From contig NW_027362768.1 of NCBI RefSeq assembly GCF_046119375.1, positions 311,798,001-311,862,000 of the forward strand: a DNA stretch of 64,000 nt, given 5' to 3'. The notes beneath the pieces are model-generated. The model searched no databases. It was not told the DNA's origin and worked only from the letters and a program-made list of their open reading frames with translations. The translations under genes and the position numbers were made by a program. How positions within the stretch are numbered: position 1 is the first letter of the stretch; every line of letters starts with the position of its first letter. The stretch is from Phyllobates terribilis. Its lineage: Eukaryota. Below are positions 6,196 to 37,155 of this stretch, in pieces.

Positions 6196-6281
6196 TAAAT
6201 GAGGCCTCAGTTACTTCTGCAACAGCTGTTGCTATAATTACAGACTTTAGAGCGACTTATCAGTTGCCCCACCTTCACGAC

Positions 6282-6868
6282 TGTTAAAGGACGAGTTTCC
6301 CTCCAAAAATATCAGTTATTAATGGGGGACTCTCCTACACCTCTATTGAGGTCCGATATTAATTTTTAACATCAAACTTGACTATTAATAATTAATATCC
6401 ACTAACGTTATCTGTGCCTTATACTATATACCAACTGAGACAAAACCGTGTGCTAATAAAAGGTATTTATTACACAAAAGTCTACAGTTAATATACTACT
6501 ATTTATCCCACTAACACAGTACACAATAATAATAACAATATACAATTCCCAATTACCTATTTTCCACCCATGTTTCCTAATCACTCATGCGGCCCACCCA
6601 ACTATACTAACTTTCCCTATATATATATACAGATACAAGGATATCAATATCTAGGAGGGTTAGTACAGGGTATGTAGGGCTAGTAAGTAAAGAGTTACAG
6701 GGGAAGAGAGATACTCAGCCATGTGTTGTTCTGTCCATGTCTCCAAGAGTCCAAAAACGGCTAGCACATGAGTGCTCTGGGGTTTTAAGTCCAGCACAGG
6801 AAATGATGTATTATTCCCCGCCCACTGGCTAAGGTCTTTGTTCATGTCCAACCATACTCGCAAAACCA
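6282..6868 (-). repeat. 3' LTR of element C
   Basis: Minus strand reads TGGTTTTGCG...CCTTTAACA; nearly identical to 17506-18093. Confidence 0.8.
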
Positions 6869-7254
6869 GTTCTTCCCTGCCGTTCACCGTAATCTAACGT
6901 CTCCATCCATAGAAAACACCTGGCTTCTTTCTTGGTCTTTAATCAAAGTTTTTTTTTTGTCATCAAAGTCTTTTTTTTTTTTTCGTCTTTCCTTGGTTCT
7001 GGCAATCTTCAGGTATCCGCCTATCCCAGAGCCATCATTCTCAGACTCTGGACTGGCTTTCACCCTCACAGTCCATAGGTCGGCCAACATCATCTCGTTT
7101 ACACCCCTCACCTTGCCAGACTTTCCGTTACTCTCCGACAGCTTGTTTCCGCTGGATTTTGAGTATGTCTGGCGTGATGAGACTGCTGGGTGTCACAGTC
7201 TGTAGTTGGGCCTCACAGCATTCTTTCAGCGGAGGCACGACTCTCTTCAGGGAC

Positions 7255-7348
7255 GACTTTGCCTTTGCTCAGGAACGATTTTGCCTTTGCTCAGGAACGA
7301 CTTTGCCTTTGCTCAGGAACAACTTTGCCTTTGCTCAGGAACAACTTT
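7255..7348. repeat. 22-bp minisatellite, about 4 copies
   Basis: Unit (G/A)ACTTTGCCTTTGCTCAGGAAC repeated in tandem. Confidence 0.9.
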
Positions 7349-8110
7349 GAGTGTTGATTAAAGAAGATCGCTGAGGCGGTTCCTCCATGAATAGATACGT
7401 AGATCTTTACTAGGCAGGTCAGAATTTCTCGAGTAGGGAGTGATGTCAAAATACCTAAGTAGACTGCGGGGAGAAACACCGTCTGATTCTAACAGACATT
7501 CAATCCATCCCTTACGAACTTCACAATAGCTAGGGTTAAAGTGGCAAATACCTTATAAAGTGAGGGGACCTGTCCCTAGAGAACCTAACTCTATTTCCCC
7601 ATTCACACACACAATACAATTCCATTGCAAAATAAGCTTTTGGTTTGAATACATATAGAGACTTGAGCTAAAATAGCATGTATTCTAACTGATCCATAGA
7701 GCACATGCAGATCATTGACCCATGTATAATTGGAGTAACTACCGGCTGCAAGTGCATGAACACCGTTACATGAACACACTTATTGTGGACTGAGTATGTC
7801 CATGCACAGGTAGTTCTGCATTTACACCTAAAGTGTCTATATGTACACATATGGAATTTCAGTATACAGTAAAACTCAAATTTATATTAAATTATATATA
7901 CACAATAAATATTGGATTCGGGGTAAAGGACTGTGTTTGTCTTATGTCCTTAACCCCTGTCTCTGGCTGAGCTCATGGTGCTTAGCCTGACTTCTGTGCA
8001 GTTGGGCAGACAGTCTTTTGATCCTCCTGCAAATCAGAAACAGTCCAATATATAAGATTACGACCAGGAGGCAATGACTGGAAGAGGCAGCTTTGGGGCT
8101 TTATTACAGT

Positions 8111-9034
8111 TGTAACGGGTCTGGGAGGCGGAACCTCTGAGCAACTTATACAAGGGGGCGGTCCTTGTAATGAAGCGGGTGGCGACCAGGGAAGACAGGC
8201 AGGTAGTCACAGCAGGTGACCGGGACAGTCTCTGGGTAAACGGGCAGGAGGTCACGGCAAGTGACCGGGACAGTCTCTGGGTAAACGGGCAGGAGGTCAC
8301 AGCAAGTGACCGGGGCAGTCTCTGGGTGAACGGGCAGGAGGTCACGGCAAGTGACGGCGGAGCCTCCAGGTAGGCTAACAGGCAGGTAGCAGATGAGCGC
8401 TCCCAGGTGAGCGGGCAAGAGTCTCTGGACTGGCAGGTGGTCACAGCACGTGACGGCGGAGCCTCCAGGTAGGCTAACAGGCAGGTAGCAGATGAGCGCT
8501 CCCAGGTGAGCGGGCAAGAGTCTCTAGACTGGCAGGTGGTCACAGCACGTGACGGCGGAGCCTCCAGGTAGGCTAACAGACGGGTAGCAGGTGAGCGCTC
8601 CCAGGTGAGCGGGCAAGCTGGTCCATAGACAGACTGACAGATGTCGGAAGGCAGACCGTCGGACCTCAGGCTAGCAAGCAGGTAAGCGGATAACAGGCAG
8701 GAATCAGACAGCAAACTGGCAGGAAACTGGCAGGTAACTGGAAACGGGACCTGAGGGCTGAAGCAGAGTAGTGAACAGTGCAACAACATTGCTCGGGCAC
8801 CTCCATTTTGGAGGAGGTGCCTTATATATGGTGAAGTCCTCCGGCCATTGGCCGGGGACTCCTTAGGACGGCGCGCGCGGCCCCTTTAAGAGGGAGGGAG
8901 CGCGCGCCCTAAGCACCGTGGCCGGGAAGGAGCGCGCGCTGCCAGCAGAGCGGGAGGAGGACGCCGGGCTCGGAGCGGAGAGGTGAGGGGAACAGCGTCC
9001 CTGCCTAGCAGAGGGCAGGGACGCCGACGCTACA
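8111..9034 (-). repeat. 3' LTR of family B
   Basis: Preceded on the minus strand by a G-rich PPT (plus strand 9035-9065); contains 99-bp and 45-bp internal tandem repeats. Confidence 0.95.
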
Positions 9035-12000
9035 GTACCCCCCCCTTTAGGCCCCCCCTTTTTTAGGCCAGACAGAAATTTAGCAAGGATGAGAGGGGCA
9101 TGGATGTTCTCCCGGGGCTCCCACGTTCTCTCTTCAGGACCAAACCCCTTCCAATCTACTAGAAAAAAGGTCTTTCCTCTTACCCTTTTTGTGGCCAGAA
9201 TGTTCTCTACCTCAAACTCGTTTTCAGCGGAAACCGGAGCAGGAGGCGTACCTGTAGACTTGGAAAAAGAGTTAAGTACCACGGGTTTGAGGAGAGATAC
9301 ATGGAAGGAGTTAGGGATCCGCAAGTTGGCCGGGAGTTTCAATTTATAGGCCACCGGGTTGATCTGACTGATGACCTCCAGAGGACCGATGAACCGAGGC
9401 CCTAACTTATAGGAAGGAATCTTGAGCCGGACATACTTGGACGAGAGCCAGACCTTATCCCCTGGACGGAATTGAGGAGGATCCAGACGTTTTTTGTCAG
9501 CATGTCTTTTCATACGCTCGGACGACTGAAGGAGTGCAGACCGGGTACTCTCCCTCATGGAGGAAAATTTGTTAACAAGAGATTCCGCAGCCGGATTATC
9601 CACCGAGGTGGAGACGGGAAATGGGATCCGAGGATGCTGACCGAAGACTACAAAAAACGGGGATTCGGAGGAAGATTCGCTCTCGTGATTGTTGTAAGAG
9701 AATTCGGCCCATGGCAGGAGATCCACCCAGTCAGAATGGTGGGCATTAACGAAGTGCCGGAGGTAACTGGTCAGGATCTGATTGATCCGCTCCACTTGAC
9801 CATTAGACTGTGGGTGGTAAGCGGAGGAGAAGTCCAGGGTGACGTCTAGCAATTTACAAGTGGCTCTCCAGAAACGTGAGGTGAACTGTACCCCACGATC
9901 CGACACGATGTGGAGGGGCAGGCCATGAAGACGGAAGATGTGGCGGATAAAGTCTTTAGCCAGCTCGGGTGCAGACGGGAGGCCTGGCAGGGGAATAAAG
10001 TGAGCCATCTTGGAAAAGCGGTCAGCGACCACCCAAATGACCGTACAACCGGCAGAGACGGGGAGATCAGTTATGAAGTCCATAGCAATATGCTGCCAGG
10101 GGGCAGCAGGCACAGGAAGCGGAAGGAGGCGACCGGCTGGCAGGTGTCTCGGGACTTTGTTGCGGGCGCAGGACACACAGGCAGAAACAAAGTCTATTAC
10201 GTCCTTGTGCAGGGTAGGCCACCAGTAGTGCCGGGTAATAAGCTGGAGGGTCTTTTTCTGACTGGCGTGGCCAGCTAGTTTAGACGAATGGCCCCAGTGT
10301 AGGATCTTCTCCCGATCAGGTACTGAAACGAACGTCTTACCGGGAGGGAGACGATTTAGACTCACAGGAGCCACCTGCATTACTCTGGCGGGATCGATGA
10401 TATGTTTAGGTTCTTCCTCGAGATCGGACACCAGAAAGGATCGGGACAAGGCGTCTGCTTTGATGTTTTTGTCAGCCGGGCGAAAATGAAGAACAAAATC
10501 AAAGCGAGCAAAAAACAAGGACCACCGGGCTTGGCGCGGGTTAAGTCTCTGGGCATGCTGGAGGTAAGCCAAGTTCTTGTGGTCAGTGTAAACTATTACC
10601 GGGTGAAGAGCCCCCTCGAGTAGGTAACGCCACTCCTCCAATGCCAGCTTGATGGCCAATAACTCTCGGTCTCCTATGGAATAGTTGCGCTCAGAAGAGG
10701 AGAAGAGTTTGGAGAAGAAGCCACAAGTTACCATTCTCCCGGAAGACGATTTTTGGGTAAGTACCGCTCCGGCTCCAGAGGAGGAGGCGTCAACTTCCAG
10801 GAAGAACTGCTTGTTGCCGTCCGGGCGATGCAGCACCGGGGCGGAAGAGAAGGCCTGTTTTAAGGAAAGAAAGGCCTCCTCTGCTTCGGACGGCCACTCT
10901 CTGGGATTAGTGCCCTTACGGGTGAGCGCGGAAATTGGGGGCAGTCCGGGAAGAGAAGTGCGGTATGAAGAGGCGGTAGTAGTTGGCGAAGCCCAGGAAC
11001 CACTGAATAGCCTTCAACCCCTCCGGTCGAGGCCATTTCTCGATGGCAGACAGTTTCTCTGGATCCATTCGGAGGCCGGTCTGAGAAATAATGTAGCCCA
11101 AAAACGGAAGCGAGGTCTGCTCAAAGAGGCACTTCTCATATTTAGCGAAGAGGAGATTCTGCCTGAGCCTGAGCAGGACCTGACGAACATCTCTCCGGAT
11201 CTCCAGACTCACCGGAGGGAAGACCAAGATGTCGTCCAGGTACACCACTACGCAGGAGTAGAGAAGGTCCCGGAAGATGTCATTTACCAACTCTTGAAAG
11301 ACGGCAGGAGCATTACAGAGACCAAAGGGCATTACCAGATATTCATAGTGGCCGTCCCGGGTGTTGAATGCAGTCTTCCATTCATCCCCCTGACGGATAC
11401 GGACCAGGTTGTACGCCCCACGGAGGTCCAGTTTGGTGAAGATTCTAGCCCCCCTCAGACGATCAAATAACTCCGGAATGAGCGGAAGGGGGTACTTATT
11501 CTTCACCGTGATCTGGTTAAGGCATCTATAGTCTATGCAGGGACGGAGAGAGCCGTCCTTCTTTTTAACGAAAAAGAAGCCTGCTCCCGCCGGGGAGGTA
11601 GATTTCCGGATGAATCCCCGGGCCAGATTCTCCTCAATATATTCGGACATCGACCGGGTCTCAGCAGCGGACAATGGATAAATACGCCCACGGGGAGGCG
11701 TAGTACCGGGTAACAGGTCGATAGGACAGTCGTATGGTCTATGAGGGGGTAATGTCTCTGCCTCCTTTTTATTAAAGACATCAGCAAATGACCAATAAGG
11801 AATCGGAAGTCCAGGTAGATTAGTTGGGGTAGGAGAAGGACGGACGGGATGAACGGGAACCAAACAAGTCTTATGGCAGTCCTGTCCCCAACGAAGGACT
11901 TGTCCGGTCTTCCAGTCAAGCACGGGTGCATGTTTCTGGAGCCAAGGTAGGCCTAGTAAGAGGGCGTGAGAGAGTCCAGGCAGAACATGAAAAGAGATGC

Positions 12001-12304
12001 TCTCAGAATGCAGCATTCCCACCTGCAGAGTAATGGATTCGGTGATGAGTTGGATGGGACGTGGTAAGAGGCCCCCTTCCACGGCAGCGACAGATAGGGG
12101 TACAGCCAGAGGTTTGGTGGGAATGCGGTGTTTTTCTACCAAGGACTGTGAAATAAGATTCCCGGCTGCTCCAGAGTCAAGTTGGGCTAGTTCGAAAAAA
12201 CGTTTCTCCCCGCAGATAATTGAGACTGACAGCAGCAGAGATGGAGAGGATTTATTCTTGTCTAGGTCGACCTCTCTGAGCGAACCTAGACACAGGCGTT
12301 TCCC
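9035..12304 (-). pseudogene. Family B pol (PR-RT-RH-IN-chromodomain), with a frameshift near 10850-10920
   Basis: ORFs 10916-12142 (RT) and 8863-10836 (RNaseH-integrase-chromodomain; its tail runs into the LTR). Confidence 0.92.
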
Positions 12305-13235
12305 GACCTCTCCGGGCAGGTACGGATCCGGTGCTCCTTGCTGCCACAGTAGAAGCAGCTCCCCTTGGCACGGCGTAAGTCCTGACGGGTTTTGACCATC
12401 TTGGTCTGGTCGACCTGCATAGGCTCAGGAGAGTGTACCTGGGGAGAAACGGAGGGAGTGACGGGTTTCTGGAAGGTAGGAGCTAGACGTGGAAACCTCC
12501 TCTCACGGGTGACCTCTTTGGCACGCTCCTGGAACCGTAGGTCAATCCGGGTGGCAAGAGTTATTAAGTCATCGAGAGTGGTAGGAATGTCCCGACCGGC
12601 GAGTTCATCTTTAATACGGCCGGACAGACCCTCCCAGAAGACAGACACCAGAGCGTTGTTATCCCAGGCCAGCTCCGAGGCAAGGGTACGGAACCGTATG
12701 GCATATTGGCCCACGGTGAGACTTCCCTGACGGAGGCGTAGCAGAGACGATGCGGATGAGGTCTTCCGTCCGGGTTCGTCGAAGACTTTCCGGAAAGCCG
12801 TGAGAAAGGCAGGCAAGTCGGACACCAGGGGGTCTCCTCTCTCCCATAGAGGATTTAGCCAAGCCAGTGCCTCCCCCGTGAGATGGGACATGATGAAGGC
12901 TACTTTGGCCCGGTCGGAGTTAAACTGGTGGGACAGGAGTTCAAAGTGCAGGGTGCACTGGTTTATGAAGTCCCGAACCAGAGCGGAGTCGCCTCCGAAG
13001 CGAGGAGGTGCAGAAGCCGGGGTCCGGAGCAGGATACCATGGTATTGGTGGGCAGCAGAGCTGCCGGGTTGCGAGTCAAGACACTAGCGGTGGTTGCTGG
13101 TGGAGCAGTCAGAGTGTCCAGGCGAGAATTGACATTCCGCAGGTGACTCAGGATGGACTCCTGTTGGGAACTCTGACGGGAAAGTTCATGACAAAGGTCC
13201 GAGAGCGAGGGAGCTTGGGTGCCACCGGGTTCCAT
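12286..13235 (-). pseudogene. Family B gag with CCHC zinc knuckle, split by a frameshift
   Basis: ORFs 12963-13235 (MEPGG...) and 12286-12891 (...[14 protein letters not shown]). Confidence 0.9.
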
Positions 13236-13248
13236 GGCCCGAGCAAAC

Positions 13249-14174
13249 TGTAACGGGTCTGGGAGGCGAAACCTCTGAGCAACTTATACAAGGGGGCGGT
13301 CCTTGTAAGGAAGCGGGTGGCGACCAGGGAAGACAGGCAGGTAGTCACAGCAGGTGACCGGGACAGTCTCTGGGTAAACGGGCAGGAGGTCACGGCAAGT
13401 GACCGGGACAGTCTCTGGGTAAACGGGCAGGAGGTCACAGCAAGTGACCGGGGCAGTCTCTGGGTGAACGGGCAGGAGGTCACGGCAAGTGACGGCGGAG
13501 CCTCCAGGTAGGCTAACAGGCAGGTAGCAGATGAGCGCTCCCAGGTGAGCGGGCAAGAGTCTCTGGACTGGCAGGTGGTCACAGCACGTGACGGCGGAGC
13601 CTCCAGGTAGGCTAACAGGCAGGTAGCAGATGAGCGCTCCCAGGTGAGCGGGCAAGAGTCTCTGGACTGGCAGGTGGTCACAGCACGTGACGGCGGAGCC
13701 TCCAGGTAGGCTAACAGACAGGTAGCAGGTGAGCGCTCCCAGGTGAGCGGGCAAGCTGGTCCATAGACAGACTGACAGATGTCGGAAGGCAGACCGTCGG
13801 ACCTCAGGCTAGCAAGCAGGTAAGCGGATAACAGGCAGGAATCAGACAGCAAACTGGCAGGAAACTGGCAGGTAACTGGAAACGGGACCTGAGGGCTGAA
13901 GCAGAGTAGTGAACAGTGCAACAACATTGCTCGGGCACCTCCATTTTGGAGGAGGTGCCTTATATATGGTGAAGTCCTCCGGCCATTGGCCGGGGACTCC
14001 TTAGGACGGCGCGCGCGGCCCCTTTAAGAGGGAGGGAATGCGCGCGCCCTAAGCACCGTGGCCGGGAAGGAGCGCGCGCTGCCAGCAGAGCGGGAGGAGG
14101 ACGCCGGGCTCGGAGCGGAGAGGTGAGGGGAACAGCCTCCCTGCCTAGCAGAGGGCAGGGACGCCGACGCTACA
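13249..14174 (-). repeat. 5' LTR of family B
   Basis: Near-identical to 8111-9034; TATATAA at 13966-13960 on the minus strand. Confidence 0.95.
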
Positions 14175-15697
14175 ACAGTCTTCTCCTCATGGCTAAAATA
14201 TGAGAGTAGATGTTTCAGCTCTGTGACAAACACAAGAGGGGTCTTCTGGCATCTCTCAGGGGTATCTGGGTGAAGGTCAAGACTTCTCTCAGGAGTGATA
14301 GGTGTTCTTTAGCACTATGCTCTGCTACATCGATACCTAAAATGGGATTAAGGGAACAATACGCTCCTGGGAGTTCTCCCGGTGCAGTTATTCAACATCC
14401 TGGCACTGGATATCTTCCCTGTCCCAACAACTCCTGTTCCTTTAGGGTGACCTCCCCCTGTTAACCTTCCTCAGCTGCCTAGCAAGTTCCTATTGCATAG
14501 GCAATGCCTTGACTCTCTTGAGCCCCACAAAATGAATGCAATTTTTCTTTAGTATGCTTCTAGTCAATTGCTTCTGATTCCCATACAGACACCCCTTCCA
14601 GTTTTTCACAATACAAAAGAGTAACACACAGCCCTCGCAGCTACTTATTCTCCTATACATAGCTTCAAACAGACTGCACAGAGACAAAGGCTCATCGTGT
14701 ATAGTTGGCTTGAACTAATTCAGGATTTCTGGAGTAACATCCCAGTTTGCCAGCCTCATGCCTCATCATGAAACTGCCCATCCCTGGGTTTGGTACTCCC
14801 CGTTGCCACATACTACCGATTAAGATATGTAGGCAACCACAACCAGCTGGAACTTCAAGGCCTAGGTGCACAATATATACCTATCCACACCTTTCTACCT
14901 ATCTTATTCCATGCCGAAAAACCAGCTCACTTGTAGATATGGCTCTATTATCAAAGGGAAAATGTTAATACACTTAGGAAAACTAAACGTCAAACTAAGG
15001 TTCACTGTTTTAAGTTGTATCCTGCATCAAGATTTAAACAAAACTAGGTTATCCGTCCAAACTTAAAGGTCTAAGCACACAGTATAACACGACACTCCAT
15101 CGTGTACGTCCGTTACCTGTCCATGCTTCTCTGCCTGTCTTAGCTCACGTAATACACCCTTTGTTCAATCCAAAATGCACAGAAAAAAAAAAAACAACAA
15201 ACCATTAACAAATTATCCGACTGAACTTCAAGGCCTAGGAGCACAATATATGCCTGTCCACACCTTTCTACCTATCTTAGTCCATGCAGCAAAACCAGCT
15301 CATCCACGGATGTGGCTCTATTACCAAATGAAAACAAAAACATTCCTGTGATCTGTGCTACTCTTAACCTTATGAATCCTATGGAAAAACTGGAGCTAAA
15401 AATAAAAGTACCAGCAAATAAACCTCATTTACTTGACAGGGGGTCTGATAGAAAACAGAAAACAACCAGCATACTAACAAATCCTGTTATAAATTGCATA
15501 CACATTGAGACCCCTATGAAGCCATTCTGCCACCTGTCTGAGCCTCACAGGTCTAACGATATATTTAAACTGTAAAAGAACAAACCTAGTAAACAACAGA
15601 ACAGTAAAATAAACTAATAAGACAAAACAACTGTATACATATAGAACAGTACAGGTCTGTTAGAAACTCTGCAGATTGAGTTTAAATCAAGGCCTTA

Positions 15698-16951
15698 CTA
15701 GGGAGCAAAATTTACCCTTTCATCCCTTGCTTGTAGTCGGCCATTTTGACACATCTGCACTTGGTGGGGCACATGAGACAGAGAGAAAATACTATTTTGT
15801 CTCTGTAAATGTCTGCTCTCCATGCTGGACTTCTCACAATTAATTCTCCAATGACAATTCCTTGCAATGTGCCCAAAGTGACCACATTTAAAACATTTAA
15901 CAGAGCAATATTTCCTCTCTCTCCTTGTACCTGACAATTTGCAGTACCTGGCAATATGACCTGAGCCATCACAGGCATAACATCTAATGGATGCCATGCT
16001 TGATGTAGGGCCCTTAACAGAACATACTTCCATTTGTCTGGATAGTTTAAACTGTTCCATCACTAGGGATGCACTTTTAACAATTTTACGTTTGCATTTT
16101 CTCATTATTTTACACTTGTCGTTACATTTATTGATTGGATCAAAATTTGATGAAATATTTGATCCATCACTCCCCCCTTTTTGCCCTGCACAGGGCACAA
16201 TTGGTAGAGAATCTGGCCTTGGTCTCAGAGACAAAGAGAAGGCCGGCACCATGTTTGAAAAATCATTGATGATATTTTGCAAATTTTTAATCAATTGGGA
16301 TCTAGTATCAAGATCAACACTCAACTGATTGATTATGGCATCACTAGCTGCTGCCTTGTCCTTAAAAGCTTTGATCTCAGCCTCAGACCGAGTCAGCTGT
16401 GCACCAATATCAAGACAATGATTTTTCATCTCAAGCAGTTGCGATTCAAGCATGCAGATCTGCTCATCTCTATCCATATCACATTTACCATTCCCTGCCA
16501 ATTGTGTCTGTAAGGCACAAACTCTCTGCAAATTTGTTACACAACACTGGCAGTGAAACTTTGGGGGATCTTCCTTACACAGTGAGTCCTCATATACACA
16601 AATCAGTTTTGCTAGCATGTGGAGCCGTTTGCTTGTTTTATTCAAAACAGACAGTCTGTCTATACACATGCTATCATGAGCACATGCTTGCTCCAATAGA
16701 GCAGACCACAGCAATTCTGCAGATTTGGGTGTACTGGGGTGCACTGGGTTAAATTTACTGTGTTTTGCCAAGCATTTCAGGGTGGATAAATCCATACTCA
16801 CTCTTCCTGGAGCCATCACGGTCATCCTCCTTGTCCCTTCTGTGCTGCTTGAAAAAGGTCCTTTTACCTCCGGAACGCCTTTTCCTGACCAGCTGGACTT
16901 TCTCTTGAGAACGACTATGCCTCTTTGGAAGAATGCCTTGGTATAGATCAC
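15698..16951 (-). CDS. Gag-like protein: coiled coil plus two CCHC zinc knuckles (417-codon ORF with a GTG start; first ATG about 42 codons in)
   Basis: CYACDGSGHIARYC and CFKCGHFGHIARNC; central heptad-like region; lies downstream of the PBS in element C. Confidence 0.75.
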   Translation of the reverse strand: MIYTKAFFQRGIVVLKRKSSWSGKGVPEVKGPFSSSTEGTRRMTVMAPGRVSMDLSTLKCLAKHSKFNPVHPSTPKSAELLWSALLEQACAHDSMCIDRLSVLNKTSKRLHMLAKLICVYEDSLCKEDPPKFHCQCCVTNLQRVCALQTQLAGNGKCDMDRDEQICMLESQLLEMKNHCLDIGAQLTRSEAEIKAFKDKAAASDAIINQLSVDLDTRSQLIKNLQNIINDFSNMVPAFSLSLRPRPDSLPIVPCAGQKGGSDGSNISSNFDPINKCNDKCKIMRKCKRKIVKSASLVMEQFKLSRQMEVCSVKGPTSSMASIRCYACDGSGHIARYCKLSGTRRERKYCSVKCFKCGHFGHIARNCHWRINCEKSSMESRHLQRQNSIFSLSHVPHQVQMCQNGRLQARDERVNFAP

Positions 16952-17493
16952 CCCAAATGCTCAAAGATTATAAAGCAAACAGAAAAACGTTAAAAAAAAA
17001 TCAGAAGAAAACAAAAGATTGGGTTCTCTGTTATAGATTTTGTCCCGTGTACAGCTCATGCTGAAAAGCTGTGTCATTCGTCTGAACTTTCAGCGCTCTG
17101 AACACACAGAATTACACAACAGTTCACTCTGTATCAATGTAATCTGTCCATGTCCCCCTGGCCTGATCAGTTCACAAACAATGACCACAAATAATCACAG
17201 AGCAAAACACAAAAAACAAAATCACAACAGTTGGGCCTGGCTCGCCATTGTTAAAAGGGCGAGTTCAAAAGAAAACAAAAGATTGGGTTCTTCTGTTGTG
17301 GATTTTGTACTGTGTATCACTCAGGCTGAAGAGCTGCGTCGCTCATCCGAACTATCAGGGCACCGAACGCACAGAATAGCACAACACTTCACCGTGTATC
17401 AATGCTATCTCTGTCCACGTCCCTCCGGCCTGATCAGCTCACGGACACAGGTCTTCACAGAGTGAAACACGAAAACTAAATCAACAGTTAGGC

Positions 17494-17504
17494 CTGGCTC
17501 GCCA
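17494..17504 (-). promoter_or_regulatory. Primer-binding site, tRNA-Arg(ACG) type
   Basis: Minus strand TGGCGAGCCAG, 1 nt from the LTR end, complementary to the 3' end of vertebrate tRNA-Arg(ACG) (...CTGGCTCGCCA). A second copy lies at 17237-17247. Confidence 0.75.
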
Positions 17505-17505
17505 T

Positions 17506-18093
17506 TGTTAAAGGACGAGTTTCCCTCCAAAAATATCAGTTATTAATGGGGGACTCTCCTACACCTCTATTGAGGTCCGATATTAACTATTAACATCAAA
17601 CTTGACTATTAATAATTAATATCCACTAACGTTATCTGTGCCTTATACTATATACCAACTGAGACAAAACCGTGTGCTAATAAAAGGTATTTATTCCACA
17701 AAAGTCTACAGTTAATATACTACTATTTATCCCACTAACACAGTACACAATAATAATAACAATATACAATTCCCAATTACCTATTTTCCACCCATGTTTC
17801 CTAATCACTCATGCGGTCCACCCAAATATACTAACTTTCCCTATATATATATACAGATACAAGGATATCAATATCTAGGAGGGTTAGTACAGGGTATGTA
17901 GGGCTAGTAAGTAAAGAGTTACAGGGGAAGAGAGATACTCAGCCATGTGTTGTTATGCCCATGTCTCCAAGAGTCCAAAAAAGGCTAGCACATGAGTGCT
18001 CTGGGGTTTTAAGTCCAGCACAGGAAATGATGTATTATTCCCTGCCCACTGGCCTAAGGTCTTTGTTCATGTCCAACCATACTCGCAAAACCT
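17506..18093 (-). repeat. 5' LTR of element C
   Basis: Direct repeat of 6282-6868 with the PBS adjacent; the terminal base differs (AG instead of TG on the minus strand). Confidence 0.8.
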
Positions 18094-19209
18094 GTTTTAG
18101 TACATGGCTGGACATTTTGTTGATCCTGCCCCCAACAGCAGCAAACAGACTGAAACACATAAGGAGATGGGGGCCAATATATACATGTATACTTATCTGC
18201 AAGCATGGCTAGCATGTAGATACATATATACATGTACAACCTAGGACACATCCCTTTACAGCGACTATATGATCATGCAAATATTCAAAGAACATATATT
18301 TTTATATAAGGCTAGACACATGTCGCTATCCGTCTCTCCATTACTTTTTTTGTAGAAAATCAGGACCATATAACAACCTACATATGAATACCAAGGTATT
18401 CACTAGATCACTCACATGAATAGTAAAATACATTTTTATTAAGTACACCTTAAAAAAAGCATATTATGCAACAAGTACACATATATGAGGAATTTAAAGA
18501 GGAAGGATCAAGAAAAGAAAGACAGTGGTGAGTTCTAATGGCTATGGTTAGTATTTGTTACATACAGTATATTCAAAGATGGCTGCCAGACATTTATACA
18601 TATACACAGTCTGTAATTGACCCCCCAAAAAGCAGGCAAAGCCATACTAAATTATTTATTTACAAAGTTTTAAATTATTTTTAACCACTAGATTCTAAAA
18701 AAAAAATCGTTATAAGTTTGCTGCCACCGTATTCTAACTGACCTAAAGAATAATATTGTCAGGCCATTTTTTACCAAATAATGAATGCTGTCATGAATTG
18801 TGTTTTTTTCACCATTTTCCACTTTTGGAATTTTTTTTTCCCATTTTCAGTACATTATATGGTAAAGTGGATGGTGTTATTCAAAACTACAACTCGATCC
18901 GCAAAAAATCAAGTCCTCAAATGACTATGGAAACCAAGAAATAAAAGGATATGGCTCCTGGAAGAAAGGGAGTAAAAAATGAAAGCTCAAAGATAGAAAT
19001 TTTCCCAGTCATTATATCATTAAATAAGTCTGGGGTAGACATATATAAAGTAATTCGGGCAGATAGACCATGAGGTCTATTTATGCCGCCAGCCTTCTAG
19101 CTTTCTTCTGTTCCTATACAGTGCGCACTTTCTAGTGGTAGCTCCACGTAAACAAAATTGTATAATTTTCGTGATATAGCTATACATTTACATATTAGAT
19201 CATGATATA

Positions 19210-22548: not shown

Positions 22549-23504
22549 CAGTGCTGTGCAAATTAATTGGGACAAAGCATTTTTTAAGTAAAATCGTAAG
22601 TTGGTCACCAGTCAGTGATTCAAACCAGTTTTAACTGTTTTGAACAGGTGTGAGTGTACAACCTTGAGTAACAAAATGTGGTTTGACTGGTTTTAGTCAG
22701 AAAATAACAGCTAGCTGCCCCCCTCAGCTTTAGTTGAGAGCTTGTTTCTGTGAGGAGTGGTTTAGTGTACTTTTTCTCTCAGTGTGATTCGTGCCTGTAA
22801 AAATGGATGTTACTCCACAGAAGAGGTCTAGAATTATTACTCTTAATGAGCATACAAGTCTGACTGTAAGAAAAATCGCTTCCACCGTTGGTATTGGAAA
22901 ATCTACCGTTTCAAGAATAATTCGCAGACACAATGAAACTGGATCTTTTTCTCCAAAACGAAAAGGGAAATGTGGAAGAAAAAGTAAAACGACACCAAGA
23001 ACTGGGAGCTTATTTCCTGTTGATGGTATGATGAATTCATCCAAATACATAGTCCTTTTAAAACGTTTTATTGTGCCATTCATGCGTAATTTGAAGGGAC
23101 ATTCCAACAAGATTTGGCTCCATGCCACAATTCCAAGTGTGTGAAGAAATCCCTGGTAGAAAATAAAGTAAAAGTGCTGGACTGGCCTGGCAATTCTCCA
23201 GACTTAAATCCTATAGAAAATTTGTGGAGCATTGTGAAGAGACGTCTTGGCAAAATGGACTGTAGAACCAAAGAACGAATGATAAACAGTGCCATACAAG
23301 TGTGGTTCCATGATGAAGAATTGAAGAATTTATGCAAAAACTTGGTAGAATCAATGCCAAAACGCATTGAAAATCTCATATCTGCTAAAGGAGGACATAT
23401 TTCTTACTAAAATTAGTATGTAACCGTGCATTATAACATTTTATTATTAAATATTCAAAAATATGTGTTTTTTTGCTTTGTCCCAATTAGTTTGCACAGC
23501 ATTG
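22549..23504 (+). mobile_element. Internally deleted Tc1/mariner element
   Basis: TIR of about 30 bp CA(G/A)TGCTGTGCAAA.TAATTGGGACAAAGC, TA TSD; N-terminal HTH fragment and C-terminal WPGNSPDLNPIENLW. Confidence 0.92.
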
Positions 23505-23547
23505 TAGGTAACAGTCAGTGTTAGCTAATCAGTGGAGTCTCTTTGGA

Positions 23548-23787
23548 TTCCTTACAATCTGGCAAATTCCTGACTTCCTGAGGATAGCTCATCAATAGCT
23601 TGTGACTGGAATGTACTTTAACATTATTGTTTGTTATATCTCCACTCTATGTAGGAAACTTCCTTACCATCTGGCAACTTCCTTACCATCTTGCAACACT
23701 GTCTGACAACTTCCTTACCATCTGGAAACTTCCTTACCATCAGGCAGCACCATCTAACAACTTTCTTACTATCTAACGTGCGTTTTT
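23548..23787. repeat. Short fragment of the compound CCATCTGGCAAC satellite
   Basis: Same core of about 90 bp and TTCCTTACCATCTGGCAAC subunits as 25411-28050. Confidence 0.85.
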
Positions 23788-24255
23788 GGCTGTGTTTTTG
23801 CCTGCGTTTTGCATGCGTTTTTACACACAAATTAAGCTAGTTGAAGAATAAAATCTTTTTTGATGTCCTTTCCTTGTTCAAACCCTTCTTCATTCTCAGT
23901 TTTGGAAGTGAAAATGCTGAGCATAGAACCTCTGATCCAGCTCTGCGGCCATATCTGCATCTATTACTAATCACAGTAATTGATCTACTGTGTCGTCGCA
24001 CAAATAAGGTAATGTGAAGTATATGTATAGTTTACATGTCTCTTTTTTTTTTGCTGTGGTGTGCAGTAACCAATAGTCTATCTTATAGGAGCAGTCCAGA
24101 AGGCAGAAAAAGATGTGGGTTCACCCAATTATAATGGACCACAGTGAGAAAGGGCACTTCCATGTTTTCCTGTTGCAGGGTACCATGCGGCATTACAGTT
24201 TACATACTCCTAGACTCTTACGGAGGTGCATAAATAGCCCAGTCCATGCAAATAT

Positions 24256-24591
24256 CAAACAAAGTAAAGAGAAAAGCAGCACTCACCGAGTCTTTGAATA
24301 AAACAACTTCCTTTATTGCTCAATACGGGACATCAGTGCAAGCGGCAGGAAGCATAGGGAAGGTATGCAGGGAACGTGTGGTGGACTATGGCCGTTTTGC
24401 AGCCTTCAGGCGCTTCTACTTGGACCTGTAGAAGCGCCTGAAGGCTGCGATACAGCCGTAGTCCACCACACCTCCCCTGCATACCCTCCCTATGCTCCCT
24501 GCCGTTTGCACTGATGTCCTGTATTGAGCAATAAAGGACGTTGTTTTATTCAAAGACTCGGTGAGTGTTGCCTTTCACCTTACTTTGTTTG
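24256..24591. repeat. Long palindrome (arms of about 163 bp, 8-nt loop); possible Penelope-like terminal repeat
   Basis: CAAACAAAGTA...CGCTTCTAC / GTAGAAGCG...TACTTTGTTTG. The right arm alone is also present at about 22370-22548. Confidence 0.8.
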
Positions 24592-25410
24592 CTATAGGTA
24601 ACAGTCATTGTTAGCTAATCAGTGGAGTCTCCATTTGGATTCAGACGTCTGCTTCCCTGGTATTGGGGGCATAGCCTAATGATTGGTCATCTCTATTCTA
24701 CTCTTGGAAAACCCCTTCATCTGTGTGATGTAGGAAATGGACAAATTTTGCAAAGAAAGTGTTTGGGTTTGAGTGAGAAACTGGGAAATTTACTGTCATG
24801 CTCCTGAAAATGAACCTTGTACAAATCCTAATTTCCCCTGTTACTTGGTAATTTACAGGAGATGATATATGTTTCATGTGCTGTAGAGAGGAGACCACGA
24901 AAATGAAGAAGAGGAGACCACCCCAAGACCATGTAAGAGCAGAGATTTACAGAGCAAGCCTTCTAGATGACATAATGATATAGATGATTCCTTCCTACTG
25001 TATATATCTGACTGCAAAGATAGCGGCCATTTATTACTTATCACTCATGCATCTAATTTACCTAATTTTTAAGAGGTTTTGGAAGATTTTTTTTTTACCT
25101 TAAGGGTTCTTTGCTGCCTTAAGACTGGATAGTACCATGTTTGCACAGGTTTCTATTTGGATACTATTCAAAGAAATGACATGCAATTTTTTTTTCCACC
25201 AGGTTTTTCTAAACTTCTTCAAGGAAGAAAAAAAAGCTAAAAAACCCTCCTCATATAAACAACAAAGTGGATTTCCCATAAGAATGAACTGGAATCAAAG
25301 CAGTTAATTTTTGAGGTGGATTTTGGAGAGGATTTGCTTAAAAAAAAATCATCAAAAAATTCTATGTGCACATTCATGATGTAACCAAGTGTTAGCTTTA
25401 GGGCTCGCTC

Positions 25411-28050
25411 ACTTCTTTACCATCTGACAACAACATCTTGCAACTTCCTTACCATCTGGCAACACCATCTAGCAAATTCCTGACATCCTGAGGATAGCTC
25501 ATCAATATCTTGTAACTGGAATGCACTTTAACATTATTGTTTGTTATATCTCCACTCTGTATAGGAAACTTCCTTACCATCTGGCAACATCATCTGGCAA
25601 CATCCTTACCATCTGGCAACACCATCTGGCAACAACATCTCGCGACTTCCTTACCATCTGGCAAATTCCTGACGTCCTGAGGATAACTTATCAATATGTT
25701 GTGACTGGAATGCACTTTAACATTATTGTTTGTTATATCTCCACTCTACATAGGAAACTTCCTTACAATTTGGCACCATCCTTACCATCTGGTAACATCA
25801 TCTGGCAACTTCCTTACCATCTGGCAACACCATCTGGCCCTTTCCTGACATCCTGAGGATAGCTCATCAACAGCTTGTGACTGGAATGCACATTAACATT
25901 GTTTGTTATATCGCCACTCTATATAGGAGCCTTCCTTACCATCTGGCAACGTTCTTACCATCTGGCAACGTCCTTACCATCTGGCAACTTCCTTACCATC
26001 TGGCAACATCATCTGACAGCTTCACTACCATCTGGCAACTTCCTTACCATCTGGCAACATTTAACAACTTCCTTACCATCTGGCAACAACTTCTCGCAAC
26101 TTCCTTACCATCTGGCAACACCATCTGGCAAATTCCTGATCTCCTGAGGATAGCTCATCAATATCTTGTAACTGGAATGCACTTTAACATTATTGTTTGT
26201 TATAGCTCCACTCTGTATAGGAAACTTCCTTACCATCTGGCAACACCATCTAGCAATGTCCTTACCATCTGGCAACACTATCTGGCAACAACATCTCGCA
26301 ACTTTTTTACCATCTGGCAGCAACATCTTGCAACTTCCCTAGCATCTGGCAAATTCCTGACGTCATGAGGATAGCTCATCAATATCTTGTGACTGGAATT
26401 CACTTTAACATTATTGTTTGTTATAGCTCCACTCTACATAGGAAACTTCCTTACCATTTGGCAACGTCCTTACCATCTGGCAACATCATCTGGCAACACA
26501 ATCTGGCAACTTCCTTACCATCTACCAACACCATCTGGCAACTTCCTTACCATCTGGCAACACAATCTGGCAACTTCCTTACCATTTGGCAACATTTAAC
26601 AACTTCCTTACCATCTGGCAACAACATCTCGCAACGTCCTTACCATCTGGCAACACCATCTGGCAAATTCCTGATTTCCTGAGGATAGCTCATCAATATC
26701 TTGTAACTGGAATGCACTTTAACATTATTGTTTGTTATATCTCCACTCTGTATAGGAAACTTCCTTACCATCTGGCAACACCATCTTACAAATTCCTTAC
26801 CATCTGGCAACATCATCTTGCAAATTACTGACATCCTGAGGATCACTCATCAATAGCTTGTGACTGGAATGCACTTTTAACATTATTTTTTGTTATATTT
26901 CCACTCTATATAGGAAACTTCCTTACCATCTGGCAACATCATCTGGCATCGTCCTTACCATCTGGCAACTTCCTTACCATCTGACAACAACATTTCACAA
27001 CTTCCTTACCATCTGGCAACACCATTTGGCCCTTCCTGACGTCCTGAGGATAGCTCATCAATAGCTTGTGACTGGAATGCACATTAACATTGTTTGTTAT
27101 ATCTCCACTCTATATAAGAAACTTCCTTACCATCTGGCAATGTTCTTACCATCTGGCAACGTCCTTACCATCTGGCAACATCATCTGGCAACTTCCTTAC
27201 CATCTGGCAACACCATCTGGCAACTTCCTTACCATCTGGCAACATTTAACAACTTCCTTACCATCTGGCAACAACATCTCGCAACTTCCTTACCATCTGG
27301 CAACAACATCTCGCAACTTCCTTACCATCTGGCAACACCATCTGGCAAACTCCTGATCTCCCGAGGATAGCTCATCAATATCTTGTAACTGGAATGCACT
27401 TGAACATTATTGTTTGTTATATCTCCACTCTGTATAGGAAACTTCCTTACCATCTGGCAACACCATCTGATAATGTCCTTACCATCTGGCAACATCCTTA
27501 CCATCTGGCAACACCATCTGGCAACAACATCTCGCAACTTCCTTACCATCTGGCAGCAACATCTTGCAACTTCCCTAGCATCTGGCAAATTCATGATGTC
27601 CTGAGGATAGCTCATCAATATCGTGTGACTGCAATGCACTTTAACATTATTGTTTGTTATATCTCCACTCTACATAGGAAACTTCCTTATCATTTGGCAA
27701 AGTCCTTACCATCTGGCAACATCATCTGGCAACTTGCTTACCATCTACCAACACCATCTGGCAACTTCCTTACCATCTGGCAACATCATCTGGCCCTTTC
27801 CTGACTTCTTGAGGATAGCTCATCAATAGCGTGTGACTGGAATGCACATTAACATTATTGTTTGTTATATCTCCACTCTATATAGGAAAATTCCTTACCA
27901 TCTGGCAACGTCCTTATCATCTGGCAACTTCCTTACCATCTGGCAACATCATCTGGCAACTTCTTTCCATCTGGCAGCATCATCTGGCATCTTCCTGACC
28001 ATCTGGCAACAACATCTCGCAACTTCCTTACCATCTGACAACAACATTTC
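25411..28050. repeat. Compound satellite, segment 1
   Basis: Conserved core of about 90 bp (TTCCTGAC.TCCTGAGGATAGCTCATCAATA...TATAGGAAAC) followed by a variable number of TTCCTTACCATCTGGCAAC and ACCATCTGGCAAC subunits. Confidence 0.95.
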
Positions 28051-28704
28051 TGTCAGAACCCTCCTGATTGTTTTTTTCCATCTTGTGTTTTGCGGTCACG
28101 TGACCACCTGCCTTTATATTCCAGCTCCGCCCTTTTGGCTGTGCTGGACTTCAGTGTTTGACTGTTTCTCTAGCCTGGTGCTTCGGTGCCTTTCTGTCAG
28201 TTCTTTTGGTCCTTCTGGGACCTTTAGTATCTTTTTGTCAGTTTGTCTTTTTGTGTTCTGCAACAACTTCTCTGTTTAGGAGGTGTCCCATTTTGTCCCA
28301 GTCCTTAGTTCTTTTAGGGATTCCTCCCTTTTTGCTATAGGTCTTCGTTCAGACTAGCCGAGGACTAAGGCGGGTCTGTTCGCTAGGAACAGACAGCCCG
28401 CTACATCGTAGGGATTCAGCTTAGTCTTACTGTAGGGACAGCCTTCCCCTATCTTTCCTTAGTACTTGTTACAGATCATAACAGTAAGTCCAGCCCAAAA
28501 AACTAAAAGGAAAGAAATTCGGGGATCAGTTTGGTTTCCGTCCAGGATTTGACTCAACGCCTGCAGGGATTGTCTTTGGAGGTGGCCGAGCTTCAGCAAC
28601 ACGTGAGTAGCTGTTCTGGAGCGCATTTTGTTTAACCCAAGGTAGGACTGCCTGATGTTTTTTATGGTAAACAGCAAGATTTTTTTTCCTTTAAAAATGC
28701 TTGT

Positions 28705-31700
28705 TTGTTATATTTTCGCTTGAGACCAAGATCCTCTGGGAATGAATCACAGCACATTGGTTTTATTATGTCACTTTTGCGGAGTGAGCCACAGGAGTGG
28801 GCCTTTTCTCTCCAACCTAATGATCCGTGTTTAAGGTCTGTAGAAGAATTTTTTTCTGCTATGGGTCTATTATATGATGATCCTGACCGAGTCTCATCTG
28901 CTGAGGCAGAACTCAGGTGTTTGAATCAGGGGCCAGGTAATGTTGAAAATTATTGCACACACTTCAGGAGATGGGCTTCAAGAGTTAAATGGAATGATCC
29001 TGCGCTGAAATGTTTGTTTCTTGCTGGTCTGAGTGAAAGGGTTAAGGATTTGCTAATTGCATTCCCCGCGCCTGAGACTCTGCAGGATGCCATGCAGTTA
29101 GCTGTTCCTGTGGACAAGAGACTGATGTCCAGGGTAAATGAGGTAAAGACTCCTGTAATGTCAGGTCCTAGTCCCCAGAAAATCTGCTGTGACGGCGGAG
29201 AACCGATGGAGTTTGGAGCGATGTCACTCCGCTCTCAGGAAAGAGACCGGAGGTTCGCCGAGGGATTGTGTCTTCATTGTGGTAAAGCTGACCATTTGAT
29301 TAAGTATTGTCAGCTTCATTTAAGTAAAGAAAAAAAAAATGTCAGGTACGCCCGTATAGCTTGTTTACTCTATGCAGGAGTATTTCTTTCTGGGAATCCT
29401 ACTTTGCAGGAAAATTTGATTGAATTTCAGGTATTTGTGGATTGTGGTTCAACACTTAATGTGATTGATAAAGGGTTTTTGGAAACCTTAAATTGAAATA
29501 CAAACCTTTGTCATCACCTATTTCTGTGATTGCAATTGATAACACTCCCTTGAAATGTATTACTCACAAGGTTGCTGCATTTCCCCTCACTATCAATTGA
29601 GTTCACCAAGAAATTTTGGACTTGGTTGTATTATATAATTTACTCTCTCCGGTCGTTTTAGGTTTGCCTTGGTTAAAACTGCACAATCCTTTACTGGACT
29701 GGTCTACTAATGTGATTAAGTCTTGGAGTCTGAAGTGCTATGATAAATGTTGTAATGGTCGCATTGCTGCTATGGAGAAAGGGGAATTACCTGTACCTAT
29801 TCAAGATTTTTGGAGGTTTTTTTCAGAGGAGGAGTCGCAAGTTTTACCTCCTCATAGGGATTATGTTTGCGCCATTGAGTTTGTTCCTGGAGCTACTCTT
29901 CCCAATAGTCGCTTGTTTAATCTGACTATTCCAGAAAGAAAGGCCTTGGAGGAGTACATACAGACTAGTCTGGCTGCTGGTCACATTAGACCTTCTAAGT
30001 CGCCCGTGGCAGTTGGATTTTTCTTTGTTAAAAAAAAGGACGGCGATTTACGTCCATGTCTGGATTTTCGCAAAATTAATAAGATTACCGTACGCAATTC
30101 CTAGTCATTGCTGTTAATTCCTGACTTGTTTAACAAGTTGGTGGGGGCCAAGTGGTTCTCTAAAATTGATCTCCGGGTGCATACAATTTGTTACGAGTGA
30201 AGGAGGGTGATAAATGGAAAACTGCTTTTAACACACCGGTCTGTCATTTTGAGAATCTGGTGATGCCTTTTGGTCTTACCAATGCACCTGCATTTTTTCA
30301 GAACCTTATTAATGACATCCTGAGACCTTTGATTGGTAAGAATGTGGTTGTGTATTTGGATGACATCTTGATTTATTCACCAGATTTAGAGTCCCATTGG
30401 CAGAGTGTACGTGAAGTTTTGCAGTTATTGAGTGATAATTCACTCTTTGCTAAGCTGGAGAAATGTGAGTTTGCTGTGCAGAAAATTAGTTTTTTGGGCT
30501 ACATTGTTTCCAGCGAGGGCTTTGAGATGGACCTGGTGAAGGTTCAGGCTGTGCAGGAATGGCCTAGGCCTATTGGTTTGAAATCTATACAGAGATTTTT
30601 GGGTTTTGCCAATTATTGCAGGAAATTCATTAAGAATTTTTCTATAATTGTTAAGCCTCTGACCGATCGCACCAGGGAAGGTGTGAATACGGCCCAGTGG
30701 ACTACTGAGGCCATTGAAGTGTTTGAGTATCTCAAAGAGAGGTTCAGTTCTGCCCCTATCCTTATGCAGCCTGATGAGACCAAGCCTTTTTTGGTCGAGG
30801 TCGATGCTTCATCGGTGGGGGTTGGAGCAGTTTTGTCTCTGGAGAACAAGGATTGAGTACATCCTTGTGCCTTCTTTTCGAAAAAATTTTTGGAAACCGA
30901 ACTGAATTATGATGTTGGAAATCAAGAGTTGCTGGCTATTAAACTCACATTTGAACATTGGTGTCATTTTTTGGAAGGCGCTAGATTTCCTATTCAGGTT
31001 TTCACTGATCATAAGAATATGATCTATCTGGATGCTGCGAAGCGCTTGAATGCCCGTCAAGCTAGGTGGGCACTTTTTTTTTCTCGGTTTCATTTTTTTG
31101 TTACCTATATCCCTGGTACTAGCCGATGCTTTATCTCGCAGCTTCTCTCCTACGGTTGGTGCCGAGGAGGAGGAGAGCATTTTACAGGAAGGAGTTGTGG
31201 TGGCGGCTTTGGGCTCCGTTTTGGAGAATGGGATTCTGAAAGCTCAAGATGATGCTCCATCTAACACTCCCCATGGGAGGTTGTTCGTGCCTAGAGCCTT
31301 TAGGAGGGATTTGTTTGTGGAGTGTCATGAGTCTCGGTTGACAAGTCATCCAGGAATTTCGGAGACTAAGAGACTTATCAGTCGCAGTTTTTGGTGGCCT
31401 GGATGGCAGAAGGAAGTCATCAAGTGGATGCATCAATGTACTGTGTGTGCTAGGTCAAAGGCTTCACATACTCCTGCTGTGGGGTTGCTTTGCCCTCTGG
31501 AGGTTCCTAGTGCGCCTTGGACGCATCTCACAATGGATTTTATTACTGATTTTTCTGTGTCCGAAGGTTTTACTGTCATCTGGGTGGTCGTGGACCGTTT
31601 TAGTAAGATGTGTCATTTGGTTCCATTCATTAAGTTGCCCTGCGCCAAGACACTCGCTAAGGCGTTTGTTAAGGAGATTGTCAAGCTCCATGGCGTTCCC

Positions 31701-32474: not shown

Positions 32475-32652
32475 GACAACTCCTGGGTAAGGACGGATGA
32501 TGTCTCTGCTCCTAGGCTTCTTAAAGCTTTCCACAAGAGGTTTCCGGATAGGCCTGGGCCTGGAGGATCCGGAGGATCCTCATAAAAGAGGGGGTACTGT
32601 CAGAACCCTCCTGTTTGTTTTTTTTCCATCTTATGTTTTGCGGTCACGTGAC

Positions 32653-37052: not shown

Positions 37053-37155
37053 CTAATTGTTTCATAATGAGCAGCTTATTATTTGTATAAAGTTATTAAA
37101 GGGGTTGTCTGGGCTTGGGATAAAAGTCTGCATGTCACTCTACAGTATACATATA

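Follow-up and report, generated by a model that had tools for sequence, protein, structure and literature searches.

The element at 6282-18260 on the minus strand of the window (the whole stretch of 64,000 nucleotides of Phyllobates terribilis analysed here) raises the question of how an LTR element with a gag-like reading frame and no pol is propagated, and whether it brings a capsid of its own. The initial annotation proposed a vertebrate non-autonomous family that keeps its own capsid and borrows Pol, or a Gag under selection, and held gag-retaining elements without pol to be described mainly from plants, although such elements have been published from Xenopus (1a11/xretpos), zebrafish (BHIKHARI) and chicken (ENS-1). 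In this study, we compared the element with its copies in the same genome (family A), with a complete retrovirus that resides beside them (family B, the helper) and with related proteins of other frogs. The reading that we favor, and consider probable by a modest measure, is a helper-dependent satellite whose capsid-less Gag-like protein may serve as an adaptor to the helper Gag.

Results

Anatomy of the window copy

The element extends beyond the range first given for it, and its features are collected in Table 1. The direct repeats described earlier are real (580 identical of 591 alignment columns between 6282-6871 and 17506-18096), but the 5' LTR ends at 18260, not at 18093; LTRs of family A measure ~760-770 bp. 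A 5-bp target-site duplication (TSD), reported as missing, is present and matches at four of five positions, and the alternative of two unrelated solo LTRs is rejected, since this duplication flanks one element. The proposed primer binding site (PBS) for tRNA-Arg was borne out, whereas the purine tract adjoining the 3' repeat is not the polypurine tract (PPT): the family PPT falls in a ~328-bp deletion that also removed ~164 bp from the start of the 3' LTR, and this PPT loss is, as far as seen, confined to the window copy. The single long frame and its two CCHC knuckles (both CX2CX4HX4C, at 15982-15941 and 15895-15854) stand; the frame measures 420 codons between stops, or 375 counted from its first ATG, instead of 417. 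The nested Gypsy element, whose LTRs differ in 7 of 926 columns, is a later insertion; the interior outside it is free of PR, RT and IN, as had been noted, but holds recognizable broken relics of env and of the capsid-coding region. The upstream copy of the duplicated leader is 85% identical to the helper leader vs 78% to the usual family A leader, and the stretch 6867-7609 is, judged by its likeness to the helper, a recombination tract. Contigs from four runs of uncertain type span most of 14175-18300; transcription is not inferable from them.

Table 1. Features of the family A copy, in positions of the window
Feature	Position	Strand	Remarks
Target-site duplication, 5' side (gcgac)	18261-18265		4/5 match to 6277-6281
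5' LTR, TG...CA, 755 bp	17506-18260	-	90.5% to the LTR of copy L007, full length
PBS, 11 nt complementary to 3' end of tRNA-Arg(ACG)	17494-17504	-	
Leader, duplicated	16961-17505	-	second LTR-end + PBS at 17237-17247
ORF, 375 aa, open frame from 16960	15698-16825	-	no capsid domain
Capsid-coding-region relic, broken (stops, frame change), downstream of ORF stop	14631-14842	-	
Env relic, broken, portion preceding Gypsy insertion	14175-14373	-	
Nested Gypsy element	8111-14174	-	TSD ACAGT 8106-8110 / 14175-14179
Env relic, broken, portion past Gypsy insertion (transmembrane/tail end)	7945-8070	-	
3' untranslated region, helper type	6867-7609	-	91.8% to helper vs 77% to usual family A version
3' LTR without its first ~164 bp and without PPT	6282-6871	-	
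Target-site duplication, 3' side (acgac)	6277-6281		pairs with gcgac, 4/5

Copies of family A

Family A is a young family of ~5.9-kb copies with paired TG...CA LTRs, PBS, PPT and TSD all present, and with a single intact Gag-derived ORF. Thirteen of the 18 bounded copies measure 5,862-6,091 bp, and 17 of the 18 are flanked by perfect 5-bp TSDs (window copy, 4/5). No pol was detected in any of 40 sampled, ORF-selected copies, in the interiors of the 18 bounded copies (tblastn), or in 13 copies picked by PPT alone, several of which are incompletely covered within 9 kb. The proposal of a vertebrate non-autonomous family borrowing Pol is supported by this consistent absence, and the objection that the element is a simple deletion derivative of a pol-bearing one is rejected. 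The 40 copies were drawn from ORF matches (the first 30 being the best 30 non-window matches), a choice that biases them toward intact frames; relics of the capsid-coding region are present in 36 of them and of env in 35. First-look candidates numbered 9,236, which is not a copy number, and 113 matches were scored. Exact A-type PPT-LTR junctions amount to 83 vs 18 of the helper type. ORF-less 2-kb derivatives (L088-L091) multiplied too, and Rfam gave zero matches in L007 or L044.

A co-resident retrovirus as helper

The helper is not a Gypsy element but a retrovirus resident in the same genome, with gag, PR-RT-tether-RNase H-IN and env. An autonomous partner sharing both LTR and PBS had been envisaged; the helper has the same 20-nt PBS/leader start as family A, a leader at ~70-77% and a 3' region at ~78% likeness, and a near-identical PPT-LTR junction, but the likeness of the LTRs is confined to their termini and short patches. 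By comparison of motifs the helper appears to be snakehead-retrovirus (SnRV)-like: its Gag has a coiled coil and one knuckle, it has a dual RNase H and env, and pol lies in frame behind the gag stop (in four copies read at fixed coordinates, TGA then pol in three and a shift in the fourth). The best PDB matches of its RT are the Pr125Pol (foamy) and p80 RTs, ahead of Ty3. Compared by eye, its RT motifs also resemble the SnRV rows in the PMC7947760 supplement. A lokiretrovirus was considered as helper and dropped on Env and RT evidence, i.e. ten env proteins and their profile gave no match to PF00523 or F, as a paramyxovirus F-like Env would, the RT of Loki-Xla carries LPFG in place of the helper's LPQG, and 0/4 helper RT motifs occur in the examined portion of the Loki supplement. 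Viral contigs held no relative of the helper RT, and NCBIfam returned coiled-coil noise only. The capsid region of the helper Gag found no PDB sequence match, and a single-sequence fold of the full Gag P0004 was uninformative (pLDDT 39.5); we call this region capsid because an Atlas search with P0154, which is related to helper Gag and comes from X. laevis, led to Retrotrans_gag clusters (top 0.95; structure TM 0.39-0.49).

A Gag-like protein without a capsid domain

In the ORF protein, the N-terminal helices of Gag are followed by a coiled coil (roughly aa 119-198), a linker and the two knuckles; 6 of 43 copies have a changed second knuckle. Its alignment with helper Gag spans the N-terminal ~190 aa at 43% identity, and ~190 further capsid-like residues of the helper are without counterpart. 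The ORF is not a whole Gag, since the capsid domain is absent and survives only as the broken relic downstream, and the earlier description of an "uninterrupted two-knuckle Gag" that keeps its own capsid has to be abandoned. That a whole Gag nevertheless builds the element's own capsid is hardly credible: the uninterrupted frame, the Gag homology and the knuckles would suit it, but nothing in the ORF matches the helper capsid-like region (best E 1.2), the coiled coil and the first knuckle are separated by only ~80 residues of low confidence, and neither a PDB fold search nor an Atlas search with the homologue P0001, over the N-terminal part, gave a capsid match. The ORF model itself is poor (mean pLDDT 57.5, pTM 0.25), and its best, non-significant fold matches are nucleocapsid and Lin28 knuckles.

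Selection on the ORF and homologues in other frogs

The share of synonymous changes is 0.28 among singletons, 0.38 among shared variants and 0.48 among variants in four or more copies, vs an expected 0.24 (p 0.003), an enrichment that supports the suggestion of an ORF under selection; between shared and singleton variants the difference reaches only p 0.04, and a coarser codon test finds none (p 0.36). Shared stops in the ORF are zero, and shared indels number 0/23 in the ORF vs 24/48 in the non-coding interior. Singleton (post-insertion) changes are near neutral and include 11 stops and 18 frameshifts, which places selection before spread and not on inserted loci, and this selection likely operated via the element's own replication. 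It is very improbable that the ORF is a passenger of an element spreading on cis signals only, with a selection signal produced by sampling. The multiplied ORF-less derivatives, the ORF-based sampling and the non-significant codon test would fit such a passenger, but the other five frames have no comparable synonymous excess (at most 0.30 vs 0.48), and the frame and knuckles are kept at ~50% divergence between frogs while the adjacent capsid and env relics are broken.

The capsid-less homologues of other frogs group in a single clade (support 100/99), and all eight knuckle ligands are kept in 4/4 capsid-less frog proteins; no capsid-less homologue from Xenopus was found among ten proteins looked up or in the homologue search. 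A protein conserved across several frog lineages could also restrain the helper as a dominant-negative brake, or be co-opted in host development in the manner of Bik-1/2 Gag or ERNI, under host-level selection. PMC12067270 provides precedents, and the excess of A-type over helper-type junctions is compatible with a brake or co-option, but the near-neutral changes after insertion make it quite unlikely.

Mosaics and primer copies

A/B mosaics are common, and the window copy is one of them. Helper-type 3' tracts with differing ends occur in five A copies (window, L014, L040, L064 and L072), and one insertion present as three duplicates (L074-L076) combines two helper LTRs and a helper leader with an A interior, bounded by a matching 5-bp TSD. 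Co-packaging of family A in helper particles is, in our view, very likely. L077 was set aside as evidence of co-packaging, given its one LTR of each type and its lack of a TSD; DNA-level recombination, which this copy would fit, could be a partial source of the mosaics.

Rare copies hold reverse-copied mature tRNA-Arg(ACG), misread at three expected modified positions: the whole 76-nt tRNA-Arg copy is present at two loci, mismatched solely at 58, 37 and 34, and 48 nt of it at a third. These copies of a mature tRNA, with misreads at modified positions, identify tRNA-Arg(ACG) as the primer.

Discussion

As a helper-dependent satellite, family A would have its pol-less RNA copied inside helper particles, the ORF protein would bind helper Gag via the retained N-terminal/coiled-coil part, and the two zinc knuckles are predicted to hold the element's own RNA. 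A model of the N-terminal part of the ORF protein in complex with that of helper Gag scored 0.56, against 0.00 for the best of three controls, with at least 46% contact agreement across runs and a partner pLDDT of at least 61, which lends weak support. The mark for such models was passed by 51/78 solved and 2/108 mismatched pairs, and the passes at 0.60 or below comprised only 5/78 solved pairs, yet all four passing mismatches. A weak pass between two homologous chains may reflect likeness to a homo-oligomer only; as modeled, the adaptor role is possible but falls short of probable. A protein of the same helper-dependent family that instead serves its own transcript in cis, away from the particle, by chaperoning, exporting or trafficking that RNA, would be compatible with two knuckles, with selection during amplification and with the nucleocapsid and Lin28 fold matches, but the retention of a Gag N-terminal/coiled-coil part so similar to that of the helper and the weak support for the hetero-complex render it unlikely. 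Returning to the adaptor, we tentatively picture an old frog satellite lineage in which Gag may have become a capsid-less adaptor, keeping the coiled coil for helper binding, dropping the shell and carrying two knuckles vs the helper's one, and which may have gained a place for its RNA in helper particles, out-multiplied the helper and traded leader, 3' region and LTRs with it.

Plant TR-GAG elements are of plant retrotransposon origin and have a capsid-bearing Gag; they resemble family A in their LTRs, gag-like ORF and absence of pol, whereas family A has a retroviral origin with an env relic, and no capsid. In Xenopus, the xretpos ORF combines a leucine zipper with a CCHC motif. The X. laevis elements xretpos(L), lambda-olt 2-1 and 1a11 are described, in the available part of PMC4585706, as LTR elements without pol, with one ORF and tens of copies, thought to have lost mobility; xretpos(L) is suggested to be tRNA-Arg primed, and 1a11 encodes a 71-kDa Gag-like protein. 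Compared by description only, xretpos and 1a11 have in common with family A that they are frog LTR elements with no pol and a tRNA-Arg primer (suggested, for xretpos), but that part of PMC4585706 reports no helper, capsid loss or recombination for them, and family A has all three. P0154 computes to 71.8 kDa, close to the 71 kDa of 1a11, and is a lead only.

PMC12067270 describes zebrafish BHIKHARI-1/2 and chicken ENS-1/ERNI as endogenous retroviruses that are gag-only, young and multi-copy; they are non-autonomous, possess a coiled coil at the N-terminus and borrow Pol in trans. As described there, their Gag keeps a capsid domain, unlike the two-knuckle, capsid-less ORF of family A, and BHIKHARI is lokiretroviral with no helper in the reference genome, whereas the SnRV-like helper of family A is present. 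The SnRV clade, or clade Huo, is characterized in PMC2717909, PMC12193657, PMC8922424 and PMC4131045 by a length of ~11 kb, a Gag that has a single knuckle and a coiled coil at its N-terminus, a pol that follows the gag stop in frame, a dual RNase H and env, with SnRV-like elements known in frogs; the helper fits this description in its motifs, but differs in having TGA as its gag stop. Our literature search found no capsid-less satellite of the SnRV clade and no capsid-less Gag that is maintained and has a known helper; Repbase/Dfam and subscription papers, outside its scope, may already name the family.

The gag-only elements known from vertebrates presumably provide a capsid of their own. 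If our reading is true, a selected, cross-species, capsid-less Gag together with its helper in one genome would represent a different parasite strategy, i.e. hijack by adaptor, and a natural system for the role of the SnRV-type Gag coiled-coil N-terminus and the theft of packaging specificity. The genomic copies of a whole modified tRNA primer directly document priming in a retrovirus clade that is unstudied, and family A may also account for the long-unplaced Xenopus xretpos/1a11 elements.

Structure of the window copy

Comparison with 40 genomic copies showed that the LTR of family A, the LTR-element family to which the window copy belongs, is ~760–770 bp long and begins TGTAAAGGG; the 5' LTR of the window copy therefore ends at 18260. 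The LTRs of about 587 bp in the initial annotation hold up as direct repeats, but not in the extent of the 5' LTR, and the TSD reported there as absent is present with one change. A stretch of ~328 bp containing the family PPT and the beginning of the 3' LTR is missing from the window copy. Its single frame (hereafter the ORF), earlier put at 417 codons, spans 420 between stops and 375 when read from its first ATG, and two zinc knuckles are its only Pfam matches.

Features of the window
Feature	Window position	Remarks
Direct repeats (LTRs)	6282-6871 and 17506-18096	minus-strand element; 580/591 aligned columns identical
TSD, 5 bp with one change	acgac 6277-6281, gcgac 18261-18265	flanks of window element
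ORF	15698-16825 (-)	
PBS	17494-17504	
Nested Gypsy element	8111-14174	inserted in window copy; own TSD
Capsid relic, broken	about 14631-14842	after ORF stop; in 36/40 copies
Env relic, broken	both sides of Gypsy insertion	in 35/40 copies
Dispersed repeat, 32-bp period	23458-40290	
52-bp tandem array	54528-56400	
Second, inverted partial copy of nested Gypsy family	56628-59094	87-94% alike
~382-bp repeat with inverted units	61346-63959	

A young family without pol

The 40 copies were the 30 best ORF matches and 10 others, from 113 matches. Both ends could be located by motif in 18, of which 17 have a perfect 5-bp TSD and 13 measure 5,862–6,091 bp. LTR pairs differ by 0–2.5% (14 copies with >700 aligned LTR bases), and family A is therefore young. 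One copy (L007), with identical LTRs and a perfect TSD, lies inside a putative transposase frame (~392-611 and 6556-6814 of that locus), which we take from its motifs to be of Tc1 type. The suspected consistent absence of pol was borne out, none being found in 40/40 copies by blastn or in 18/18 interiors by tblastn. Exact PPT-LTR junctions of family A type number 83, with an ORF match upstream in 70; the remaining 13, fetched as a sample independent of the ORF, all carry 3' sequence of family A type, and no pol was found within the 9 kb read, several of these stretches ending early.

A related retrovirus and its exchanges with family A

A genome search with the full Gag, from which 20 stretches were fetched, identified a helper (family B) with the order gag, TGA, in-frame PR-RT-tether-RNase H-IN, and env; some copies are intact, others broken. 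It has in common with family A the 20 nt from the PBS onward and the PPT-LTR junction, with ~70–77% likeness in the leader and ~78% in the 3' region; the LTRs differ over most of their length. Exact junctions of helper type number 18, some on chimeras. Compared by eye, the motifs of its RT and RNase H are like those in the SnRV (snakehead retrovirus) rows in the supplement of PMC7947760 and unlike Loki-Xla, and its Gag layout agrees with the SnRV description in PMC2717909, so that the helper appears SnRV-like; frogs are already known to hold such elements (PMC4131045). No match was found between helper env and paramyxovirus F. Env relatives at 70–80% occur in six other frog genera, tandem helper-type pieces (L078-L079) have a common partial LTR and the same ~1.1-kb insertion in env, and a Xenopus laevis relative of helper Gag (P0154), at 71.8 kDa, is as large as the 1a11 protein is stated to be.

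Exchange between the families was scored at 133 diagnostic sites. In the window copy and in L014, L040, L064 and L072, helper bases span the larger part of the 3' region and stop at different points on the right, while L024 has a short helper-type tract and L004 almost none. One chimeric insertion combines two helper LTRs, a helper leader and a family A interior with matching TSD; three loci with identical flanks (L074-L076) represent it, duplicated along with its surroundings. Repeated tracts exchanged between sequences ~22% apart are the known outcome of template switching between co-packaged RNAs. DNA-level recombination could also give rise to such mosaics, and one locus, L077, is better explained by it. 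The capsid relic sits behind the knuckles, out of Gag order, and over part of its length shares 85–97% identity with certain helper-type copies; possible explanations are a signal in the RNA that acts in cis or a scar left by recombination.

The primer tRNA

A tRNA-Arg(ACG) gene was located, and the usual PBS matches it over 11 nt. A full 18-nt match occurs at 15 loci, and among the 8 read, the tRNA copy comprises the entire 76-nt mature tRNA in 2, 48 nt in 1 (L084 = L082) and 18–19 nt in 5. Both 76-nt copies, CCA included, are reverse-copied in place of the PBS (L085 at ~1506-1581; L087 = L002:1322-1397), and may descend from one event. Apart from positions 58, 37 and 34, with A34 read as G, they agree with the gene throughout; we take these positions to be the ones that normally carry m1A, m1G and inosine. 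Such copies are direct evidence that modified tRNA-Arg(ACG) primes reverse transcription. In both families the PBS retains 11 matching nt and, behind them, an identical stretch of 9 mismatched bases, even though copies with 18 nt do appear. A ~2-kb mini-element lacking the ORF, composed of an LTR, a tRNA copy of 18–19 nt, 458 bp from the 3' region and a second LTR, is alike in 4/4 such loci read (L088-L091); 7 more of the 15 loci probably hold it, and these loci may be duplicates of one insertion.

A Gag without capsid

Homologues of the ORF are few. They comprise a 377-aa Engystomops protein (48% over 86%) and, among cluster representatives, both fragments and longer proteins belonging to other frogs; in the longer ones an N-terminal ~190 aa in common with the ORF is followed by ~190 residues absent from it. 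In the Atlas this extra region grouped with retroelement capsid families by features (0.95) and structure (TM 0.39–0.49), and nothing in the ORF matched it (best E 1.2), contrary to the earlier reading of a family that keeps its own capsid. The predicted ORF structure (pLDDT 57.5) has short helices together with a single long one at 119-198, beyond which confidence is low, and gave no significant match in a PDB search. By sequence comparison and modelling, the ORF is therefore a Gag minus its capsid, with two knuckles vs one in full Gag. A tree was built from 13 N-terminal domains, omitting the too-short protein P0012; a branch with 100/99 support separates the three capsid-less proteins from all others in it, and these three are ~45–52% identical to one another.

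Selection on the ORF

Variants were counted over the 40 copies, chosen by ORF similarity, plus the window, against an expected synonymous share of 0.24. Singleton changes (81 synonymous, 193 non-synonymous, 11 stops) lie near neutral expectation; the corresponding counts are 27/44/0 (p 0.007) for shared changes and 15/16/0 (p 0.003) for changes in 4+ copies, the synonymous share in the five other frames being <=0.30. Shared indels number 0/23 in the ORF vs 24/48 in the non-coding interior. For the dN/dS check envisaged for gag, pairwise pN/pS came to 0.49, but the codon-level contrast of shared vs singleton variants gave no significant difference (p 0.36). Overall, the counts agree with selection acting on those copies that later spread rather than on loci already inserted.

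A possible adaptor to helper Gag

In the literature searched, which included neither repeat libraries nor the papers that first described xretpos, no capsid-less Gag satellite was found; the portions consulted of PMC12690878, PMC4977317 and 10.1101/2024.07.05.601823 held no information on satellites. Xretpos may be of the same kind. A complex model of the ORF and helper Gag N-terminal parts scored 0.56, against 0.00 for the best control, with contacts agreeing in at least 46% and a partner pLDDT no lower than 61. In the benchmark, 5/78 solved pairs lie at this level, as do all 4 of the mismatched pairs that passed, and the modelled chains are homologous; the model hints at a hetero-complex. 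An RNA-handling role outside the particle, or a brake or host role, seems to us less probable than an adaptor to helper Gag, to which we give somewhat under an even chance. Helper proteins probably package, reverse-transcribe and integrate family A RNA, and the ORF protein is probably required in cis. As an adaptor, its retained N-terminal part could pair with helper Gag and its two knuckles could hold the element's own RNA.
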